Shown here piece by piece: positions 18,853-59,343 of a DNA stretch of 64,000 nt (its first letter is position 1; the number at the start of each line of letters is the position of its first letter). The notes beneath the pieces were generated by a model that saw only the letters and a list, made by a program, of their open reading frames with translations, searched no databases and was not told the origin of the DNA. Origin of the DNA: a virus (Duplodnaviria > Caudoviricetes); the IMG/VR virus record IMGVR_UViG_3300033407_000005, positions 1-64,000 of that record; one strand, 5' to 3'. The position numbers were made by a program, and so were the translations under genes.

Positions 18853-18904
18853 TTCAATCAACGTGAAATTTCTCTTGTAAAACTTCAAAAGGCGTGAATA
18901 TAAT
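18853..18904 (+). promoter_or_regulatory. operator pair (OL-like) plus promoter
   Basis: TTCA-N7-TGAA at 18853-18867 and 18884-18898; TTGTAA-N18-TATAAT 18875-18904. Confidence 0.75.
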
Positions 18905-19001
18905 CCCCCCCACTCGCGAACAACCTCTCTCCTGGAGGTGATCATGCGGCCAGCACCCGGGAAAGCCGGGTGCACCGCTCGCGAGGGAGGGGAGGCCCGA
19001 C

Positions 19002-19885: not shown

Positions 19886-20454
19886 TGGAAACCCTGCCTC
19901 TCGACCACGTCGAGCAACCCAACCCGCCGCCACGTCCTACGCTGGCGGACGAGAGCGTGAGGCGTGCCGCCGCCGAGGCGCTCATGCCCGAGATCATTCG
20001 GTGGCTTGGTAAAGATTGGCAGGAAGCCGAGCGCGAGGACTACATCGAAGACTTGATGGAAGTCGCTCACGTATGGGACGGCTACCAGGCCGCGCGGCTG
20101 CTGGAAAGTCGCAGCCATTGGTCGCCCGATCAGGAGCTTGTCGAGATCCTCGGGGGCGCGGACGGACCGATGGCGGCCGATCGGGCTATCGAGGCGTGGG
20201 TCGCGGCCAACAACATCACCCCGAAACTGGCGATCGGAGACACCGTTCGAGCGCGACCCCGCGGCGGAATCGGCCCAATCGTCAACATAGACGCGGCTCA
20301 TGCAACCTATACCGTGGCGACCACCGATTTTTTTCGGGAATACCCGGATCAGGCAGGCAAAGGCGGCGGTATCGTCGTTGCGTTCGAGGACTGTGCCCTA
20401 GCCGCCACATCCGAGGCGCCCAACCCCCAAGACACCGGCGCCGAACCCCGATGA
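19885..20454 (+). CDS. hypothetical protein
   Basis: 189-aa coupled ORF. Confidence 0.7.
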   Translation: METLPLDHVEQPNPPPRPTLADESVRRAAAEALMPEIIRWLGKDWQEAEREDYIEDLMEVAHVWDGYQAARLLESRSHWSPDQELVEILGGADGPMAADRAIEAWVAANNITPKLAIGDTVRARPRGGIGPIVNIDAAHATYTVATTDFFREYPDQAGKGGGIVVAFEDCALAATSEAPNPQDTGAEPR

Positions 20455-20747
20455 ACCCAAATCCCCCAACCTTACGACGCGGCCAAGGGCATCTTTACGG
20501 TGCCGTCCTGACTGGCGGAAAAGAAGCTGCTGGATTGAGTGCCGGACAAGACGGTGAGTGTCCGAGGACAGCCACGGGTCAACTGAGCCCGTCAAGATGT
20601 CAAACAACCCCGTCCGCCGGTGGAGGGCCTTTGTGTGGCGTCTTCCCTTCTACCCTCGCGACCGGCACCCTTTTTCCCCCACAAGGACATTCCCCCATGC
20701 CCTTCCCCCAGACCGGGCATGCGGCTGTCGCTGGAGGAGGTGGCTTG

Positions 20748-21215
20748 ATGCGCACCAAACGGCTGTCGAAAGAGCAGAAGTTACAGCTCCCCGCAGTGCT
20801 GGCCGCAATCGGCGGCGCCGCGACTATCGACGAGCTGGAAGAGGCATTTCAGGCCGGGCATCGCGCGCTCGACGATCACCCGTTCTCGACGGCTTGGAAT
20901 GAACGCGGCAACGCGATGCGCGCCCGCGGTTGGGATTTGATTGAAGCTGATCCTCAAGGCCACCTGATCCCGCGCCTCGGCGAGCGCCATAAGTTGTCAG
21001 TCGCTGGCGAGACGACGCGCGTCGGGTACGGACATAACGCCGCCGGCGTGCGGTGGGTTTGGGCTGAAGCCGAAGCGTGGGCTATCGGGCACCTGAAATC
21101 GCATGGCGTCGCCGAAGAAACGGCCAAGACCGTCTGGGGATGGTGCTTTGAATATCCCCATCGCGCTCTAAAGGTTCTTCGCAGGCGAGTGAAAGAACCA
21201 TGCTTATCCGGTTGA
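20748..21215 (+). CDS. hypothetical protein; last codons and stop come from cassette A1 left end
   Basis: GGAGGAGG RBS; ends KEP|CLSG*. Confidence 0.65.
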   Translation: MRTKRLSKEQKLQLPAVLAAIGGAATIDELEEAFQAGHRALDDHPFSTAWNERGNAMRARGWDLIEADPQGHLIPRLGERHKLSVAGETTRVGYGHNAAGVRWVWAEAEAWAIGHLKSHGVAEETAKTVWGWCFEYPHRALKVLRRRVKEPCLSG

Positions 21216-21633
21216 CACCCACACTACCTCTAGGAGTTAGGAAATGTCCGAAACCCGCGAATTTCCGACAGCCGCCATCGCCTCGCTTTCGACAGGCACC
21301 TTGCTGTGCAAGTTCAGCGACATACACGAGGCCGCTGAGTATTTGATGGGCCACCCAATCTGGACGCATCAATTCGCCGATAAGCAGCTTTTCGCTGATA
21401 TGCGAGCGATGATCATCGAACAGTGCCCTGGAATGCCCGCGAGAGACGGCCAAATCACGCCTGAGAACTGGCGCGAGAAGCTCGCCGAGTTGGTCGCGGA
21501 ATTAGGCCCCACACAGACAATCCGCAAAGGGGCCGGGTTGACCGCGATGCTGCCGACTGACGGCATCCCAGAGCACGTCGAATTGCTCGTGGTCAATGTT
21601 CCTTAAGGGTGGGTAACAACCGGATGAAGCATG
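21199..21633 (+). mobile_element. non-autonomous IS1595-like cassette A1 (ISSod11-type ends)
   Basis: left end CATGCTTATCCGGTTGACACCCA, degenerate right end ..CAACCGGATGAAGCATG; 8-bp GAAAGAAC at 21191 and 21634. Confidence 0.8.
21244..21606 (+). CDS. hypothetical protein, cargo of A1
   Basis: AGGAG RBS, lower GC, fills the cassette. Confidence 0.75.
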   Translation: MSETREFPTAAIASLSTGTLLCKFSDIHEAAEYLMGHPIWTHQFADKQLFADMRAMIIEQCPGMPARDGQITPENWREKLAELVAELGPTQTIRKGAGLTAMLPTDGIPEHVELLVVNVP

Positions 21634-21641
21634 GAAAGAAC

Positions 21642-22233
21642 CATGCTTATCCGGTTGACACCCAAGAAACCTTATACCCACTACATCTAGGAGCGGCAAA
21701 TGAACGTCAAAAAGCTCTACGAAATCCTTCGCGAGACAACTGTCCAACTGCGCAAGGGTGAAGTTTACGAAGGGACGCCAGAGCTTGTGGAACAAGCCAA
21801 GCGTGGCGACGAATTGAAGGGCGGCGGCGTTCTTGAAGTCTACGCCATGCCTCATGTCGCCGATGCCAATCCCGACATCGAAAAGGTCGATCTCGAATTT
21901 CTCGTAATCGGCGTCAATAAGGCCATCGCTGAAACGCGTAAGGCCGAATTGATCGAAATTCTTAAGGATTATCCTCAACCGGAGCGCCTTGCGGGCGGCC
22001 CGTCCTACATCGAAGTCGGTGCAGAGATCGGCGATCAAGGCGCGGCCTTCCAACTTTTTGCGCTCGGGAAAGTGCTCGGGCTTTGGGACGTAATCACGCC
22101 CGCGACGATGGGATTCGCGGGCGCGGAAGCGCGCCAGATGGCAGGCAGCGGTTTTGTCATGATGACGGGCTTCAAAGTGGCGGCCTAGGGGTAGTGGGTA
22201 TGGGAGCGGTTGGGTGTCAACCGGATAAGCATG
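21642..22233 (+). mobile_element. non-autonomous IS1595-like cassette A2 (ISSod11-type ends)
   Basis: perfect 23-bp IR (21642-21664 / 22211-22233); GAAAGAAC at 21634 and 22234. Confidence 0.88.
21700..22188 (+). CDS. hypothetical protein, cargo of A2
   Basis: AGGAG RBS, lower GC. Confidence 0.8.
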   Translation: MNVKKLYEILRETTVQLRKGEVYEGTPELVEQAKRGDELKGGGVLEVYAMPHVADANPDIEKVDLEFLVIGVNKAIAETRKAELIEILKDYPQPERLAGGPSYIEVGAEIGDQGAAFQLFALGKVLGLWDVITPATMGFAGAEARQMAGSGFVMMTGFKVAA

Positions 22234-22243
22234 GAAAGAACCG

Positions 22244-22558
22244 ATGATGCTGAGCACGCTGGCGCCCCCGTTTCTCGCCGCCGCCTTCGTGCTCGCGGGG
22301 TCGCTCGACTACGACCCGCGGATCCTGACGCTTCGCTGGCCCGACGGCCACGAGGAGCGGATCGCCGCGACCTCGCCCGATACCTGTGCGACGGCGGTCC
22401 GGGCGGTCGGGCTCGCCATCTGGCCGGCCGGCCAGCCGCCGCCGGTCAGCGCGTCGTGCCGGCCCGGGAACGGGTTTGCCGCCGTGGACCGTCAGCCCAC
22501 GGACTTGATCCGTGGGGCCCATTGCATCCGCGGCTTCAACTGCGAGCACCCCCGCTGA
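22244..22558 (+). CDS. putative exported protein
   Basis: signal-like N-terminus; REP-like hairpin 22496-22516 in frame. Confidence 0.55.
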   Translation: MMLSTLAPPFLAAAFVLAGSLDYDPRILTLRWPDGHEERIAATSPDTCATAVRAVGLAIWPAGQPPPVSASCRPGNGFAAVDRQPTDLIRGAHCIRGFNCEHPR

Positions 22559-22587
22559 CATCCACGACCTGTCGCCAGGAAAGGAAG

Positions 22588-23103
22588 GGGAATTATATAG
22601 ATGACTTCCTCTGCCGAAATTTACGCCATTTCGCTCTGGCAGCCGTGGGCATCCCTGATCGCGATCGGGGCCAAGCCATTCGAGACGCGCGACTGGTTCC
22701 CGCCGAAGTGGCTTATCGGGAAGCGAATAGCGATCCATGCCGCAATCAAGGCGATGCCGCGAGACGCGGAGGATCAACACGATTTCACCGAGGCGTTCGG
22801 CGGCCGAGGGTGGCGGGCCGTCGTGCCGAAGGGCGCGATCGTATGCACGGCGATCCTCGCTGGCGCTTACCAATGCGGCCATTCTGACCGCGAGAGCGTG
22901 AACGTGGTCCGGGCGATAACAGGATCGCGGGCACTTAACCGCATCGCGCTCGATACGTTCGGGGACTATGCGCCCGATCGTGTCGCGTGGTGGCTGACGG
23001 ACATCGAGCCGCTTGATCCGCCCATCCCAGAAAAGGGGCATCAAGGTTTTTGGAAGTTGAACGGACTCCTGGCATGACGCAGGTAGTCAAGTATGTAATT
23101 CCC
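22588..23103 (+). mobile_element. non-autonomous IS1595-like cassette B1 (ISNwi1-type ends)
   Basis: 19-bp IR with 3 mismatches (22588-22606 / 23085-23103); AAAGGAAG at 22580 and 23104. Confidence 0.82.
22601..23077 (+). CDS. ASCH-domain protein, cargo of B1
   Basis: AISLWQPWASLIAIGAKPFETR, IAIHAA, GAIVC, P.KGHQGFW. Confidence 0.9.
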   Translation: MTSSAEIYAISLWQPWASLIAIGAKPFETRDWFPPKWLIGKRIAIHAAIKAMPRDAEDQHDFTEAFGGRGWRAVVPKGAIVCTAILAGAYQCGHSDRESVNVVRAITGSRALNRIALDTFGDYAPDRVAWWLTDIEPLDPPIPEKGHQGFWKLNGLLA

Positions 23104-23116
23104 AAAGGAAGCACCC

Positions 23117-23419
23117 ATGACCAAAGCCGACATGATCACATTGATCGCCGCCTACTGCGGCATTTCCTCCCGAGCGCGCGCCGGCGAGGCGCTCGATGCC
23201 ATCCTCCACGAGATCGCCGGTGAATTGGTCCTTGGCAGGCGGGTGATCCTGCCGCATGTCGGCATTCTGGTCGCCACCGGGCCGATCGGCGCCCGCAAGG
23301 GGCGCAATCCGCGCACCGGCGCGGCGATCGAGATAAAGGCCTGCCGGCGCATCCGGTTTCGCCCGACCAAGTTGCTGAAGGCGAGGCTCGGCGCAACCAT
23401 CCCGACGGCGGCGGAATAG
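23117..23419 (+). CDS. HU/IHF-family DNA-binding protein
   Basis: MTKADMI..RKGRNPRTGAAIEIKA..FRPTKLLK. Confidence 0.9.
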   Translation: MTKADMITLIAAYCGISSRARAGEALDAILHEIAGELVLGRRVILPHVGILVATGPIGARKGRNPRTGAAIEIKACRRIRFRPTKLLKARLGATIPTAAE

Positions 23420-23430
23420 AGGCCCGGCCG

Positions 23431-23868
23431 ATGCTGTCGCGGAGTCATAAACTGTTCCACGCGATCGAGGCGGTGCTCGACATCGCCTGCCACCACCCCG
23501 CCGCCGTGCGCTCGGCCGACATCGCAAAGCGCGCCGGGGTCGACGGCCGCTATCTCGAGCCGGCGCTGCAGGCGCTGGCGGCCCACAATATCCTCGCGAG
23601 CAAGCGGGGGCGCGCCGTCGGCGGCTACCGGCTGACCCGGCCGCCGGCCAAGGTGACGCTCGGCGAGGTGGTGCGCGCGATCCGCAGCCTCGATGCGCCG
23701 GTCGCCGATCCGGCAAAGAGCCCGCTCGCCCTCCTGGTGGTCGGCCCGGTGCTGCGCGAGATCGAGGACACCGAAAACCTCGCGCTCGACAGGATATCGT
23801 TCGAGATGCTGTGCCGGATCGCGCGAACAGCCGCGGCGCCGGCCGGCGATGCGGAGGAGGCGGCATGA
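23431..23868 (+). CDS. Rrf2-family transcriptional regulator
   Basis: YLEPALQAL..SKRGRAVGGYRLTRPPAKVTLGEVVRAI. Confidence 0.88.
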   Translation: MLSRSHKLFHAIEAVLDIACHHPAAVRSADIAKRAGVDGRYLEPALQALAAHNILASKRGRAVGGYRLTRPPAKVTLGEVVRAIRSLDAPVADPAKSPLALLVVGPVLREIEDTENLALDRISFEMLCRIARTAAAPAGDAEEAA

Positions 23869-24044
23869 CCCGAGATCAAAAAGCCCTCAAGCTGCGCCAC
23901 GTGACCGGCGTATCCGCAAAGGAAGCATTTCGTTTTCTGCTGTTGTACGAGGCCGTCAAAGACATTGAGGCCGAGGCTGCTGCTGCCGAACGGATCGCGC
24001 GAACAGCCGCGGCGCCGGCCGACGATGCGGAGGAGGCGGCATAA
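23865..24044 (+). CDS. hypothetical protein; C-terminus duplicates the Rrf2 C-terminus
   Basis: RIARTAAAPAxDAEEAA in both. Confidence 0.5.
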   Translation: MTRDQKALKLRHVTGVSAKEAFRFLLLYEAVKDIEAEAAAAERIARTAAAPADDAEEAA

Positions 24045-24046
24045 AA

Positions 24047-24922
24047 ATGGCGGAGCATCTGATCGACGGTGAGTTTCAGAGCGATAAATATCCGACGACG
24101 CCGCGCGGCAAGGTTCCGCTGTCGTGCAAAGACATGATGGCGCAAGACCTGCTTTGGGAATATGCGCAGCGTCGCCGAAAGATTGACGCCGACTTTTCGG
24201 CTGATCTTGAAGCCGCCCTTCGCGCCCAAGGCTATGTACCGCTCGATGAGCCGGTGCCGGCCCTCGATGCGAAGCATCAGCAGGTGTCCGACCAGTGCCG
24301 CGCGGTCGCGCACATCGCCAAAACCATCAGCGAGGTGCATGGCGATCTCGCCAAGACTTATGCGCACCACGGCCCCGAAGCACATATGGACTTTGTTGGT
24401 CGTTTAACCGCCGAGCGCATGGAGGTGCTCGGTGATATGGCGAACGGTATGGACATCGTTCAGCCCGAAGATGAATGGCTGAACCCGATCTTTGAAGGCG
24501 TGCCCGCGCTACCAATGGACCCCGCCATGACCGGCCGCTTCGACGCCAAAACCGCCTTCGCCGCATTGTCGCCCGACGAGCAGCGCAGCATCGGCGAGGC
24601 CGGTCTCCTCCTCGCCTATTGCATCGACCGCAAGGAATTTCTGGACCCGCCCGGCCGCGCCAAGCCGGTACCCCGGACCGATCTCTACCGTGCCTTCGAG
24701 ACCGCCGAGAGCGAGGCCTACGAGTTGCTGCTCGACGCGGCGCGCGCCTGCGAGCTGCCGGAATTCGACGCATCGCCGCCGGCGCCGCCCGGCCTCGCAA
24801 TCTTCGGCATCGCGCAATGCGCGGTCTGCGGCTGCACCGAGGCGCACGCCTGCCCGGAAGGCTGCGGCTGGGCAACCGAGGCGCGGGATCTGTGCACGCG
24901 CTGCGCCGCAGCGGCGCATTGA
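24047..24922 (+). CDS. composite hypothetical protein with C-terminal Cys cluster
   Basis: CAVCGCTEAHACPEGCGW..LCTRC. Confidence 0.65.
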   Translation: MAEHLIDGEFQSDKYPTTPRGKVPLSCKDMMAQDLLWEYAQRRRKIDADFSADLEAALRAQGYVPLDEPVPALDAKHQQVSDQCRAVAHIAKTISEVHGDLAKTYAHHGPEAHMDFVGRLTAERMEVLGDMANGMDIVQPEDEWLNPIFEGVPALPMDPAMTGRFDAKTAFAALSPDEQRSIGEAGLLLAYCIDRKEFLDPPGRAKPVPRTDLYRAFETAESEAYELLLDAARACELPEFDASPPAPPGLAIFGIAQCAVCGCTEAHACPEGCGWATEARDLCTRCAAAAH

Positions 24923-24930
24923 CACTGAAG

Positions 24931-24946
24931 CATGCTTATCCGGTTG
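24931..24946 (+). mobile_element. solo family-A end
   Basis: CATGCTTATCCGGTTG; no partner found. Confidence 0.6.
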
Positions 24947-24963
24947 TCGCTCAACGAGGCTAG

Positions 24964-25455
24964 ATGTTGATGACCAAAAAAGCACGACAATCTCTCATTG
25001 ATTTCCTGCTGGCGTGTGCCCATCGGCGGGTTGATGCGCGGGCGGCGGTTACTCCGTGCTTCTATTACGAGTGTCGCGAGTGCGGCGGCTCTGATCTAAA
25101 CCGAGAAGATTTGCACGTCCGACCGACGCTCGCTGGGGTGACGCACAGGCCCAACTGTCTTGTCGGGCAGTACCGCGCTATCGCAGAGAATGACATGCTC
25201 ACCACGGAAGCAAACACACAACTGATCGCGGAACGCGATGCGATGAAGGGGCTGATGAAGAGACGAGCAGTTTTCATTCTTGGACTGTTGTGGAATGCGG
25301 CCAAGAAGCAGGAAGCGATTGAGAGAGAAGTCGCCGGGGAGCGGGAGGCGCGGCACAAACTAGAAGCCGCACTCACCGGGAAAGACAAAGCGATGGGCGT
25401 GCTGTTCGAGCGGCTGACAGCTGCGGGCGTCGATTGCTCCGACCTGATCCCATAG
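24964..25455 (+). CDS. hypothetical protein (Zn-ribbon plus coiled coil)
   Basis: YECRECGG; lower GC. Confidence 0.6.
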   Translation: MLMTKKARQSLIDFLLACAHRRVDARAAVTPCFYYECRECGGSDLNREDLHVRPTLAGVTHRPNCLVGQYRAIAENDMLTTEANTQLIAERDAMKGLMKRRAVFILGLLWNAAKKQEAIEREVAGEREARHKLEAALTGKDKAMGVLFERLTAAGVDCSDLIP

Positions 25456-25483
25456 ACCTGCGCCCTGCGCCGTATCCGAGGGG

Positions 25484-26449
25484 ATGCCTGACATGGCCGA
25501 CAACACGCACATCGGATGGACCGACGCCACCTGGAACCCGGTGCGCGGCTGCTCGCGCGTGTCGCCGGGCTGCGGCGGCGCCAACCACGAGGGCGGCTGC
25601 TATGCCGAGAAGATCGCGGCGCGGTTCTCCGGCCCGGGCCAGCCCTACGAGGGCTTTGCCCGGCGCACCCCGAACGGCGGCCAGTGGACCGGCAAGCTGG
25701 CGCTGGTCGAAGAGTCGCTTGACCTGCCGCTGCGCTGGAAACGCCCACGCCGCATCTTCGTCAACTCGATGTCCGACCTGTTCCACGAGGCGCTGCCCGA
25801 CGCGGCGATCGACCAGGTGCTTGAGGTCATCGGAGCCTGCGACGATCAGGACCGAGGGCATATATTCCAGATCCTCACGAAGCGCGGCGTGCGCCAGCGC
25901 GACTACATGCGCAGCGCACGCGCCTATGACGCCTGGAACCGCCGCTGCATGGCACAGGAGGCATGGCCGCCGCGGAATATCTGGCTCGGGGTCTCGGTCG
26001 AGGACCAGGAGCGCAAGCATCGCATCGACGAGTTGCGCGCGACCCCGGCCGCCATCCGCTTTCTGAGCCTTGAGCCTTTGCTTGAAGACCTCGGGGCCAT
26101 TGACCTGACCGGCATCCATTGGGTCATCGTCGGAGGCGAGTCCGGCCCCCGCGCGCGGCCGATGCATCCTGACTGGGCGCGCTCGCTCAGGGATCAGTGC
26201 CAGGCTGCCGGGGTGGCGTTCTTCTTCAAGCAATGGGGTGAGTGGATCGCCGGCGACGATCTGCCCAGCGAACATCAGGAGGCCGTCGAGCTCGGCGAGC
26301 GCCGGCTGCTGACCTATGACCAGGGGCAAAAACTGGCGGGCCGGCGAGAATATGAATTCCACAGCGACGGCTCGACGCTGATCCGCGTCGGCAAGCACGC
26401 CGCTGGCCGGCTGCTCGACGGCCGCGAGCACAACGAGTTTCCGGTATGA
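25484..26449 (+). CDS. DUF5131 / phage Gp37-Gp68-like protein
   Basis: TWNPVRGCSRVSPGC..CYAE, IFVNSMSDLFH, FQILTKR, RFLSLEPLL, WVIVGGESG, FFFKQWG. Confidence 0.92.
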   Translation: MPDMADNTHIGWTDATWNPVRGCSRVSPGCGGANHEGGCYAEKIAARFSGPGQPYEGFARRTPNGGQWTGKLALVEESLDLPLRWKRPRRIFVNSMSDLFHEALPDAAIDQVLEVIGACDDQDRGHIFQILTKRGVRQRDYMRSARAYDAWNRRCMAQEAWPPRNIWLGVSVEDQERKHRIDELRATPAAIRFLSLEPLLEDLGAIDLTGIHWVIVGGESGPRARPMHPDWARSLRDQCQAAGVAFFFKQWGEWIAGDDLPSEHQEAVELGERRLLTYDQGQKLAGRREYEFHSDGSTLIRVGKHAAGRLLDGREHNEFPV

Positions 26450-26510
26450 GCAATCACAGCAGCGGGATTCCGGCATGAGCGTGGCGCGCTGTTTCGATTG
26501 CGGCCCTGGT

Positions 26511-26870
26511 CGCGATCCGGGCGCTGCTCGGCTGGTGGGGCGAGCGGACCTGCGATTACGTGAGGCCCGAGACGTGCCGGGCTTATGTGAAGTGGCGGTC
26601 AATTGGCGGTCAATTGGCGGTCAATTGGCGGTCAAGGGACTAAATTTAGCCGATAGGCTAAACGATACTAAATATCGGCACGGCGCCGCTTCCACCGCCG
26701 GCAGAGAACTCACCGTCCTCCGTACCGCCCTCGGCTACGCGCACAGGAACGGCAAGCTGATCGACCGCCCGTTCGTCGAGCTGCCGCCGCGCCCGCCCGG
26801 TCGCGACCGCTGGCTGACCCGCTCCGAGGCCGCCGCGCTCTTGTGGGAGAGCCGTCGCGATCCCCATTGC
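26511..26870 (+). pseudogene. tyrosine integrase remnant, frameshifted
   Basis: AIRALLGWWGE..CRAYVKW then STAGRELTVLRTAL..PPRPPGRDRWLTRSEAAALL; no catalytic domain. Confidence 0.75.
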
Positions 26871-26919
26871 CACGTCGACGTGATCATCGAAGCGATCGAC
26901 GCGCTGATCGAGATCGCCA

Positions 26920-27429
26920 ATGGCTGAAGCTCTTCCCGGTTGGCTTGAAGGGCTGAGCCACAAGGACTTCCTCTTCAACGGGTCGACGTGCACCGAGGAT
27001 GCCTGGGCCAGGCTCGATTGGCATCGCGCCTATGTCGACATGGGGCCATCGCCGGCGGGAAACGCCGGGCCCTATTGGCACGTCCCGCGACCCTGCGACG
27101 AGACGATACAACGGCTCTACCCGAAGGTGCTGCGCTCAAAATGGCTGCTGCTGATCAGGCGCGCCGTCGAAGAGGCGATCGAGCGGGACCGGCGGCCGGC
27201 GGCGGCGCCGAGGACCCCAGCGCCCCGTAATAACCTTTCGGCGGCTATCCTGCAGGTATTCGCGAACAACCGCGGCCTGCGCCTCAACAGCGCCACGGTA
27301 ATAGCGCAACTTCGGCGGTCCCATCGAGGGGTGTCGGTCAGACAGATTAACAACGCGCTCGATTACCTGAAACGAACGGGCCGCCTGATTCGCGTCGAAC
27401 GAGGCCGATACGAGGCCGCCAATGGCTGA
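26920..27429 (+). CDS. hypothetical protein with C-terminal wHTH-like region
   Basis: QINNALDYLKRTGRLIRVERGRY. Confidence 0.6.
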   Translation: MAEALPGWLEGLSHKDFLFNGSTCTEDAWARLDWHRAYVDMGPSPAGNAGPYWHVPRPCDETIQRLYPKVLRSKWLLLIRRAVEEAIERDRRPAAAPRTPAPRNNLSAAILQVFANNRGLRLNSATVIAQLRRSHRGVSVRQINNALDYLKRTGRLIRVERGRYEAANG

Positions 27430-27640
27430 ACGCCGCACCCCACCCTCGTTCTGCTTTCTGCCGACCCAGATGCCGGGCGAGAAGGCGGAAGCCTATCAGG
27501 CGATCCACGAGCATCATTGCGCCGACAAGCGGCCGGGCCATCTCTGCGCCGGCAAGGTGACCCTCGATCGCCTCGGGATCACCCTGTCGTGCCCCCGGTG
27601 CGGCGATCACCGCTCGCTGTTCCCGAAGGCCGCCGGATGA
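27422..27640 (+). CDS. small Cys/His protein
   Basis: HHC..HLC..CPRCG. Confidence 0.6.
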   Translation: MAERRTPPSFCFLPTQMPGEKAEAYQAIHEHHCADKRPGHLCAGKVTLDRLGITLSCPRCGDHRSLFPKAAG

Positions 27641-27652
27641 AGGCGATCAGAC

Positions 27653-27922
27653 ATGGCTGAGGCGCCCGCTGCCGGCTGGTATGTGATCCGCCGCGCCGGC
27701 GACGGCGCGGTCTCTTGCCTCTACACCGCCGGAGACGGCTGGTGGGCGATGTGCGGCCGGAATTGCCTGGGATTGCCCCCCGGCTGGTCCCTCGGCCCGT
27801 CGCTCGACGAGCTGCTCGACATCTACGAAGCGCGGCTCAGTCGCGCCCGCCGCCCCCGCCAGCACAACGCCGACCCGCGCGAGATCGACGGAGCAGCCGA
27901 TGGCCGATCGGCCCGATTATAG
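27653..27922 (+). CDS. hypothetical protein
   Basis: coupled ORF. Confidence 0.45.
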   Translation: MAEAPAAGWYVIRRAGDGAVSCLYTAGDGWWAMCGRNCLGLPPGWSLGPSLDELLDIYEARLSRARRPRQHNADPREIDGAADGRSARL

Positions 27923-28190
27923 AGCCGACGGCGAGATCGTCGAAATTTCCGGACTCAGCGGGGAGTGGAAGCGGATGCCCGACGACATTCGCTACGTCTA
28001 CGCCGCCGGCTCAATGACCTGCTGTCCGATCTGCCAAGAAGCCGCCGCGGGAGTGCCGTGGGGCGGTTGCTTCATTTGCGACAAGCGAGGCTGTTGCGTC
28101 GCACTCGTCGATACCGGCGAGGTCTTCGTGCCTCTACCCGATCGTTCGCCCGCGTCGAGAAGCCGCCCCAGCGCCCGATCCGTTGAATAG
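27900..28190 (+). CDS. hypothetical Cys-rich protein
   Basis: CCPIC..CFICD. Confidence 0.45.
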   Translation: MADRPDYRADGEIVEISGLSGEWKRMPDDIRYVYAAGSMTCCPICQEAAAGVPWGGCFICDKRGCCVALVDTGEVFVPLPDRSPASRSRPSARSVE

Positions 28191-28213
28191 ACGAGCACCG
28201 GCATTCTAAATTT

Positions 28214-28551
28214 GGGAATTATATACATGACTTCCTCGAACTCAGGAGAAAAGCAGATGCTTGACAAGCTCGGTAACGTCATGCGCGGCGCGGAAATTGA
28301 CCGCGAGGTTATAGACAGCGGTCTCGCGGTCCTCACGCGACAGGTGCGCGAAACATGGCTTGCGACCGACTATCCAAAGGCTATGCGCAGTGATGGCGCT
28401 CAATTTAGGCACGCTTGCCTTCACGCGACCAAGGCGATCGGCAAAATCACCGCGTTGATCGATCATGCCGATCACGAACGCCTTGACGACCCAAGAAGCC
28501 CTGGCCGCGAGCCTAGGGCCATTAGGCGAGGAAGTCATGTATATAATTCCC
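28214..28551 (+). mobile_element. non-autonomous IS1595-like cassette B2 (ISNwi1-type ends)
   Basis: perfect 25-bp IR GGGAATTATATACATGACTTCCTCG; CTAAATTT at 28206 and 28552. Confidence 0.9.
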
Positions 28552-28580
28552 CTAAATTTAGTCCCTTGACCGCCAATTGA
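28227..28580 (+). CDS. B2 cargo, probably truncated; reads through the right end
   Basis: ATG inside left IR; last residues encoded by IR and flank. Confidence 0.5.
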   Translation: MTSSNSGEKQMLDKLGNVMRGAEIDREVIDSGLAVLTRQVRETWLATDYPKAMRSDGAQFRHACLHATKAIGKITALIDHADHERLDDPRSPGREPRAIRRGSHVYNSPKFSPLTAN

Positions 28581-28687
28581 CCGCCAATTGACCGCCACTT
28601 CACATAAGCCCGGCACGTCTCGGGCCTCACGTAATCGCAGGTCCGCTCGCCCCACCAGCCGAGCAGCGCCCGGATCGCGTAGCCGGC

Positions 28688-39518: not shown

Positions 39519-39540
39519 CAGTACGATCCATGCTATCCGG

Positions 39541-39834
39541 TTAAGACCCATGAACACGACTGCTTGTGTTTTGTAGTTTTTCTTCCAGATTTTCAACGCG
39601 CCTAAGCGCATACATTGTTGGACGCGAAACTGTTTCGATAGGTCCTGACATAAAAGCCCCTTCACAGGTTATCCCTGCGTCGTGAAGACGCTTACAGATG
39701 CAAGAGGGGCAGAGTAAACCGCCCTCGTCGCCACTCGGAGAGATACCTCTCCATACCGAAAGGGGAATAATCAAGTCAGGGAAACCATGATCATTTCCAT
39801 ATGGGCGTTTGCAGTCGTGGCACGCGGCATTCAT
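39541..39834 (-). CDS. Cys-rich hypothetical protein (low-GC insert)
   Basis: CHDC..LCPSCI. Confidence 0.6.
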   Translation of the reverse strand: MNAACHDCKRPYGNDHGFPDLIIPLSVWRGISPSGDEGGLLCPSCICKRLHDAGITCEGAFMSGPIETVSRPTMYALRRVENLEEKLQNTSSRVHGS

Positions 39835-39873
39835 CGATCAACTCCTAGTGCCTGTGTGTGACAACCGGATCCT

Positions 39874-57890: not shown

Positions 57891-57900
57891 TATAATTCCC
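57891..57900 (-). mobile_element. solo ISNwi1-type end
   Basis: reverse complement GGGAATTATA. Confidence 0.5.
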
Positions 57901-57978
57901 CCTTCCAGATACGTCCGCGCAGTTTCCTGATCCGGGAACATCGCGAAAAGCTGAAAGGTTGAAAGGTTGCTGGACTAA

Positions 57979-59266: not shown

Positions 59267-59343
59267 GCCACTCCGCTCCATGCTTTCCGGTAGCATATGG
59301 GAACGAAACGGCCAGCGCGACACCCGCGTCAAGGGCTGTTACA

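Follow-up and report, generated by a model that had tools for sequence, protein, structure and literature searches.

Single-gene cassettes in the phage genome

The DNA analysed here, called the window throughout, comprises the first 64 kb of a linear virus record in IMG/VR (IMGVR_UViG_3300033407_000005), which has a length of 75.7 kb and is rated 84% complete. The phage, uncultured and GC-rich, carries at least six small cassettes with the ends of two insertion sequences (ISs) of the IS1595 family. Four of these, designated A1, A2, B1 and B2, lie between 21 and 29 kb, and each consists of terminal inverted repeats around one open reading frame (ORF), flanked by an exact 8-bp duplication. A sequence-only reading had described four such elements of 338-592 bp, and they were reproduced base for base. 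The window has a GC content of 65%, and the four cassettes 55-60%.

Cassettes A1 (435 bp, 21199-21633, plus strand) and A2 (592 bp, 21642-22233, plus strand) have A-type ends and are arranged head to tail, with copies of GAAAGAAC before, between and after them (21191-21198, 21634-21641 and 22234-22241). The middle copy provides the only bases separating A1 from A2, and the ATG of a 104-aa gene (22244) lies 2 nt downstream of the third. The left end of A1 is perfect and is followed by a CTAGGAG..ATG leader 5' of the cargo, while the right end contains one additional base and two mismatches (~23 of 27 positions matching, one indel). The ends of A2 are perfect over 24 of 24 positions and remain 82% identical over 51 nt.

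Cassette B1 (516 bp, 22588-23103, plus strand) has B-type ends that agree at 18 of 22 positions, the right end differing at the other four, and its cargo begins at an ATG within the left repeat. It is bounded by AAAGGAAG at 22580-22587 and 23104-23111, and the ATG of an HU-like gene (23117) follows 5 nt downstream. Cassette B2 (338 bp, 28214-28551, plus strand) has ends that are perfect over 25 of 25 positions and is bounded by CTAAATTT at 28206-28213 and 28552-28559, the right copy forming the initial 8 nt of the arm of a long inverted repeat (28552-28679).

The chance of each exact 8-bp duplication is 1 in 65,536. The A-type 16-mer CATGCTTATCCGGTTG occurs four times in the whole record and its reversed control does not occur, and the motif GGGAATTATA, with up to one mismatch, occurs six times against 0.98 expected, a count reached in none of 100 shuffles.

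Identity of the cassette ends

A search of IMG/VR recovered CATGCTTATCCGGTTG in at least 119 stretches, with similarity continuing 25-45 nt past the 16-mer. Allowing three errors, 99 inverted pairs of A-type ends were identified, 65 of which (62 unique) were flanked by exact 8-bp direct repeats of unrelated sequence. At least 13 A-type elements with exact 8-bp duplications encode Zn_ribbon_IS1595 and DDE_Tnp_IS1595 domains. The transposase-encoding phage elements of this type measure 1.57-2.25 kb, and the protein of one A-type element matches NF033547, the NCBIfam model of the IS1595 transposase (E 7e-55). Scanning for B-type ends yielded 58 stretches and, with exact duplications, 20 elements, three of which (L128, L248 and L255) encode a 305-aa IS1595 transposase. 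The autonomous partners that the sequence-only reading had proposed to look for, carrying the same ends as the cassettes, were therefore found for both types. Among the findings that it had named as refuting its mobile-cassette reading was that no IS1595 element shares these ends; this was checked and holds for neither A nor B. An ORF of 550-575 aa in L128 and L132, for which the ATG of the B-type repeat would be the start, was rejected as an antisense artefact, as it has no family match and the true 305-aa transposase lies on the opposite strand. In one A-type element (L013:400-2382, duplication ATCCAAAT), a 307-aa ORF was observed that joins an IS1595 Zn-ribbon to an HNH_3 nuclease and a helix-turn-helix, which replace the DDE domain.

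Elements of the A type and a transposase of the B type were also found in bacteria. Genomes of uncultured Alphaproteobacteria, Rhodoferax, Acidobacteriota and Nitrospiraceae contain plain ISs, 1015-1170 bp long, that have A-type ends and duplications, and in two from Alphaproteobacteria (L339, L370) the first 23 bases are identical to the A2 end. Miniature inverted-repeat transposable elements (MITEs) of 100-250 bp with A-type ends occur in bacterial genomes, and a B-type transposase was found in a Hyphomicrobium metagenome-assembled genome (MAG) at 71% identity. Among 50,697 records of an isolate-phage collection, transposases of these types gave only three weak matches.

The closest named IS for the A type is ISAcr1 of Acidiphilium plasmids, the transposase of which is 64% identical to a phage-borne copy. 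ISAcr1 has the ends CTTGCCTATCCGGTTGAC and the duplication GAATCAGC, and its ends, as CTTGCCTATCCGGTTG, agree with the pattern nnnGcnTATC. This pattern is that of the ISSod11 subgroup and ggnnatTAT that of ISNwi1, to which the A type and the B type, respectively, would belong. For the B-type transposase the best plasmid match is 44% identical and unnamed.

In the summary of Siguier, Gagnevin and Chandler 2009 (PMID 19286454) that is given in PMC8101967, the IS1595 family is defined by an 8-bp duplication, a Zn finger and DDE_Tnp_IS1595. The window elements have the 8-bp duplication and terminal repeats that equal, or nearly equal, those of elements encoding an IS1595 transposase, and have no transposase of their own with a Zn finger and DDE_Tnp_IS1595; they are therefore derivatives of IS1595, not autonomous members. 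The earlier statement that the window contains no transposase was borne out across the 75.7-kb record, in which no DDE_Tnp_IS1595 match was found and only a relic of 27 codons is present.

It is highly probable that the cassettes are non-autonomous derivatives of two IS1595-family ISs, the A type close to ISAcr1 and the B type with GGGAATTATATAC-type ends. DDE transposition brought them into the phage and duplicated 8 bp of A/T-rich target. The repeats might instead serve a different process, such as integron-like site-specific recombination, homing or an invertible switch, and the single promoter-less ORFs in one direction do resemble an integron array, with a long inverted repeat nearby. However, the 8-bp direct duplications are exact and of unrelated sequence at each site, identical end types enclose IS1595 transposases, and no IntI-type integron integrase lies beside the cassettes, where only a truncated phage-type tyrosine-integrase fragment (26475-26927) was found. 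Such a process is accordingly very improbable.

Additional copies, decayed ends and a transposase relic

Three items had been missed by the sequence-only reading, namely the cassettes A3 and A4 and a solo B-type end at 57891-57900. A3 (24931-25455, plus strand) has an exact A-type left end followed by the leader and a 163-aa ORF (24964-25455), and no right end was found when up to four errors were allowed. A4 (39529-39870, minus strand) is a decayed A-type cassette whose left tip carries a single deletion and whose right tip has lost its last 7 nt. It contains the same CTAGGAG leader as A1, and then a 97-aa cysteine-rich ORF (39541-39834, minus strand).

The solo B-type end abuts the transposase relic (57974 to 57900), the two together occupying 57891-57974 on the minus strand. 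The relic comprises 27 codons without a start codon and corresponds to the N-terminus of the B-type IS1595 transposase (tblastn, 60% identity over 25 residues, E 1.8e-5), reading STFQLFAMFPDQETARTYLEG compared with STFKLFETFPNEEAARVYLEG in L128. Because it is cut off exactly where the solo B-type end begins, an autonomous B-type copy must once have been resident in the phage lineage. Directly upstream of the relic, on the same strand, is a 277-aa ORF with no family match.

Degenerate look-alikes were also seen, of a B-type end (GGGGATTATA, 18887-18908) and of an A-type end (CATGCTTTCCGGTAG, 59279-59293); these may be further decayed remnants or may be due to chance. Six or seven insertions from two IS1595 lineages within 64 kb make the window a dense example.

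Elements without a transposase and their mobility

Among the validated IMG/VR elements, 46 of 62 A-type and 17 of 20 B-type are too small (170-1398 bp) to hold a transposase, and most of the transposase-less elements are nearly filled by a single ORF. One cassette of 365 bp is 98% identical in two phage contigs, but occupies different targets, CTATATTT in L012 and AATGGATA in L049, and one autonomous copy was likewise found at two sites.

These observations bear on whether the window elements are dead relics, that is, complete passenger-carrying IS1595 copies that landed, lost their transposase in place and never moved as cassettes. The same phage contains a transposase relic, A3 and A4 show that ends decay in place, and autonomous passenger-carrying copies exist, all of which would fit such a history. 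Against this, the transposase-less majority of both types retains both ends and a tightly fitting single ORF, one family cassette occupies two different targets, the ends of A2 and B2 are perfect, and such a history would need five clean, independent deletions within a single phage. Loss in place without later movement is thus improbable, and derivation as non-autonomous elements that would move by their IS1595 ends remains the preferred reading.

The sequence-only reading had suggested looking in related phages for the same inverted repeats with other cargo and for empty sites. The former were found, with many cargoes in other phages, but no empty sites. Relatives of the protein encoded upstream were absent from IMG/VR, from JGI metagenomes and from a set of 5.8 billion proteins, and an exact 25-mer of the flank had no match in metagenome contigs. 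Empty-site reconstructions of family elements with long enough flanks had no match among the loci fetched by then, nor did the empty-site pattern for the L046/L107 element in IMG/VR. Neighbours with DUF5131, considered as possible relatives, reached at most ~50% identity and were too distant to be useful. No empty site could be shown for the window cassettes because the collections contain no close relative of the phage.

Target sites and expression

Of the three target sites, two are situated 2 and 5 nt upstream of a start codon, and these two hold three of the four elements. The targets had been described earlier as resembling ribosome-binding sites; the position just before an ATG held for these three elements, but the resemblance did not hold as a rule for the family, as Shine-Dalgarno (SD)-like 4-mers are not enriched among 61 A-type duplications (7 of 61, against a background of 12%). 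The duplications are instead rich in A/T. Those of the A type have a GC content of 0.37 compared with 0.59 in the host locus (p 2e-11) and a symmetrised pattern of RWWBVWWY, and those of the B type have 0.16 compared with 0.54. Insertions lie within 14 nt of a gene start in 16 of 61 cases, whereas 8.7% of random positions do (p 5e-5, threefold). In a phage of 65% GC, A/T-rich octamers are mostly intergenic, and the choice of A/T-rich targets together with selection against gene disruption would explain why the sites look like ribosome-binding sites.

All cargo ORFs of the 21-29 kb stretch are oriented along the operon, and every cassette supplies its own ribosome-binding site. The A-type leader contains stop codons in two of three frames. 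Within the cassettes, no promoter-like sites (by a scan for a sigma-70-like consensus) and no terminator-like sites were found; the TTGACA in the repeat was considered as a -35 box and rejected, since that scan gave no promoter-like site in any cassette. At B1 the duplication places one SD-like copy of AAAGGAAG before the cargo and another before the HU gene. The earlier suggestion that operon expression may be preserved is in keeping with all three features, namely cassettes free of promoter- and terminator-like sites, orientation along the operon and an SD-like sequence before both genes at B1, and the cargo is probably expressed as part of the operon. The B-type repeat does not generally supply a start codon, as its ATG is a minority variant and the majority of ends read CTTRAC.

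The A1-A2 stack and the surroundings of B2

The three copies of GAAAGAAC show that two different cassettes used identical 8 bp, and it is possible that the stack was caused by an insertion aimed next to a resident end. An exact scan of IMG/VR for two A-type ends 8 bp apart gave no match. A fuzzy scan identified two A-type ends that face each other across an 8-bp spacer, ATATATTT, in L127:3002-3041, an arrangement like that of the A1-A2 junction; no outer ends were detected in that locus. When A1, A2 and two copies of the duplication are removed, the upstream ORF (20016-21215) has no stop codon and is in frame with the gene at 22244-22558, and in the present sequence a TGA in the left repeat of A1 terminates it after seven extra codons. 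An original fusion of the upstream ORF to the 104-aa gene was considered and rejected, as homologues of the 104-aa gene stand alone.

B2 adjoins a perfect inverted duplication of 127-138 nt (26512-26649 and 28552-28679), the left arm of which has one 11-bp unit more. The duplicated sequence derives from a tyrosine-integrase gene that is broken and truncated, of which it covers the N-terminal part together with an array of GTCAATTGGCG units. It may reflect a real rearrangement or an assembly join. The two arms enclose five small ORFs and B2. The inner edge of the duplication is the palindrome CTAAATTTAG, which is the target of B2; the left copy is unoccupied.

Since the record is a metagenome contig, these two regions above all might be artefacts in which assembly joined strain variants at repeats. 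The repeats recur, although they are shorter than common k-mers, and the inverted duplication touches B2. Every element is, however, complete with matching duplications on both sides, and the same architecture is present in hundreds of independent assemblies, so that an artefact appears very unlikely and insertion by transposition is retained as the explanation.

A 52-bp direct repeat (98%; 23815-23866 and 23991-24042) was also noted, which copies the 3' end of an Rrf2-family gene around a 59-aa ORF of lower GC. The arrangement suggests that a small gene was inserted here by means other than IS1595.

Cargo of the cassettes

The cargo of A1 (120 aa, 21244-21606, plus strand) contains DUF7736 (E 8e-17) and matches phrog_15963, phrog_13999 and phrog_23870. 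The cargo of A2 (162 aa, 21700-22188, plus strand) belongs to a conserved family without a Pfam match; it has 746 homologues in metagenomes and MAGs, those listed being 64-82% identical. Its structure model is confident (pLDDT 94.7) and gave no Foldseek match, with only winged-helix-like matches at Z 5 among solved structures. Homologues in 11 other phage contigs have no flanking repeats, and the A2 cargo is therefore an ordinary phage gene that was captured. The cargo of B1 (158 aa, 22601-23077, plus strand) matches phrog_3193 (E 2.6e-30) and, weakly, ASCH domains in the PDB. That the cassettes carry phage-type genes, as proposed earlier, is thus confirmed by the family matches of A1 and B1 and the phage homologues of A2. 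The ORF of B2 (28227 or 28257 to 28580, plus strand) extends 29 nt beyond the right end, and no relatives of it were found.

Elsewhere in the cassette family several of the cargo genes encode DNA methyltransferases. A NADAR domain, a protein resembling PAPS reductase and TnpB are also represented, as are many PHROG families without a known function. A small ORF and then an ASCH-like gene, 36% identical to the B1 cargo, come after an A-type left end at L014:3134-3754, so that the same cargo family is found behind both end types.

Proposed origin and movement

At the left end of ISAcr1 the repeat is followed by a leader with CTAGATCTAG and, ~12 nt on, by the ATG of the transposase. Cassettes A1-A4 have the same layout, with the repeat, CTAGGAG or CTAGATG, and the cargo ATG within ~15 nt. 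Most autonomous phage copies have an additional ORF, placed between leader and transposase on the same strand and often overlapping the transposase. From these three layouts we infer a series from a plain IS to an IS with a passenger and, with loss of the transposase, to a cassette. The ancestral order would have been end and leader, passenger, transposase and end. The cassettes would keep both transposase-binding ends, with the A type also keeping the IS's own 5' leader, and a single accessory gene would occupy the place of the transposase, or of passenger and transposase.

The transposase would then be supplied from outside the cassette. Candidate sources are ISs on the chromosome of an alphaproteobacterial host, the once-resident phage copy (relic at 57900-57974) and a co-infecting phage. 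Action in trans by a host-borne transposase during infection is plausible, because plain A-type ISs and the B-type transposase occur in bacterial genomes.

Several observations weigh against mobile cassettes of this kind in the phage itself. The right ends of A1 and B1 are imperfect and A3 and A4 each lack one end, and some copies are therefore probably already immobile. An intact transposase is absent from the 75.7-kb record, which is 84% complete, and neither an empty site nor a second copy was found for the window's own cassettes, whose mobility is read from that of the family. The empty-site history of A1 and A2, with a frame that runs into the next gene, is not fully understood. Finally, the B2 ORF may not be a working gene, as it extends out of the element and has no relatives.

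We tentatively suggest, as a possibility that falls somewhat short of an even chance, that single-gene cassettes derived from IS1595 make up a common pool which is active at present and carries accessory and counter-defence genes, among them those for DNA methyltransferases, NADAR, PAPS-reductase-like proteins, TnpB and many unknowns, from one environmental phage to another, unrelated one, and that insertion aimed at the 8 bp beside a resident end builds arrays such as A1-A2. If true, phage genomes would have, in such a pool, their own counterpart of the integron, based on transposons.

Comparison with known elements

The window cassettes are a known kind of element, IS1595-derived mobile insertion cassettes (MICs). 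With the IS1595 family and ISAcr1 they share the 8-bp duplication, the GCnTATCCGGTTG core in the A-type ends and a leader that matches the ISAcr1 transposase leader, and their partner elements encode Zn-ribbon and DDE_Tnp_IS1595 transposases. Unlike these ISs, the window copies carry one unrelated gene and no transposase, and reside in a phage rather than a chromosome or plasmid.

Passenger-carrying members of the IS1595 family are called 'transporter IS', examples in ISfinder being ISNwi1+ and ISPna2+. A comparable organisation, in which the same ends enclose a transposase and one or two extra genes, is present in L025, L072, L073, L089, L109, L128 and others, whereas the window cassettes keep the passenger only, having lost the transposase.

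MICs, such as the IS231-derived MIC231 of Bacillus cereus, have IS ends and passengers without a transposase. The window elements likewise have IS-type inverted repeats, passengers and no transposase, and are presumably mobilised in trans; they differ from MIC231 in belonging to IS1595 and not IS4/IS231, in their phage host, in their single tiny ORFs and in a pool of dozens of cargoes. The term mobile insertion cassette is used in PMC3281130 and PMC4133298.

Like MITEs, the cassettes are non-autonomous, and the ends and the duplication are the same in both. MITEs are short and non-coding, whereas an ORF with a ribosome-binding site fills each window element as a complete gene, and two of the cargoes match protein families. 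They also differ from integron cassettes, which end in an attC site and lie beside an IntI integrase with attI: the ends here are IS1595 repeats with target duplications, no attC models having been run. The mycobacteriophage elements MPME1 and MPME2, reportedly described by Sampson et al. in 2009, are said to measure ~440 bp and all to contain the same ORF, thought to be their own transposase. By that description they too are very small, repeat-bounded single-ORF elements in phage genomes; the window elements differ in that each has a different cargo and in that the ends belong to IS1595.

Phage genomes are mosaic, and the traffic of single accessory genes ("morons") is mostly attributed to recombination of the illegitimate kind; insertion sequences are regarded as rare in phage genomes. 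The cassettes provide a defined enzymatic route by which one gene with its translation signals can enter A/T-rich intergenic spots and leave the operon unbroken, and the transposase for this delivery could originate from the host chromosome or another phage. A literature search found no paper on IS1595 cassettes in phages or on their use as a gene shuttle among environmental phages. New here are A3, A4, the B-type transposase relic and cassette leaders that copy the IS's own transposase leader.

None of the window's cassettes carries TnpB. Inside the ends of these DDE transposons, TnpB (OrfB_IS605 and Cas12f1-like TNB) was observed twice as the sole gene, between A-type ends at L041:1253-2408, with the duplication ATATCAGA, and between B-type ends at L133:2991-4365, with no duplication.

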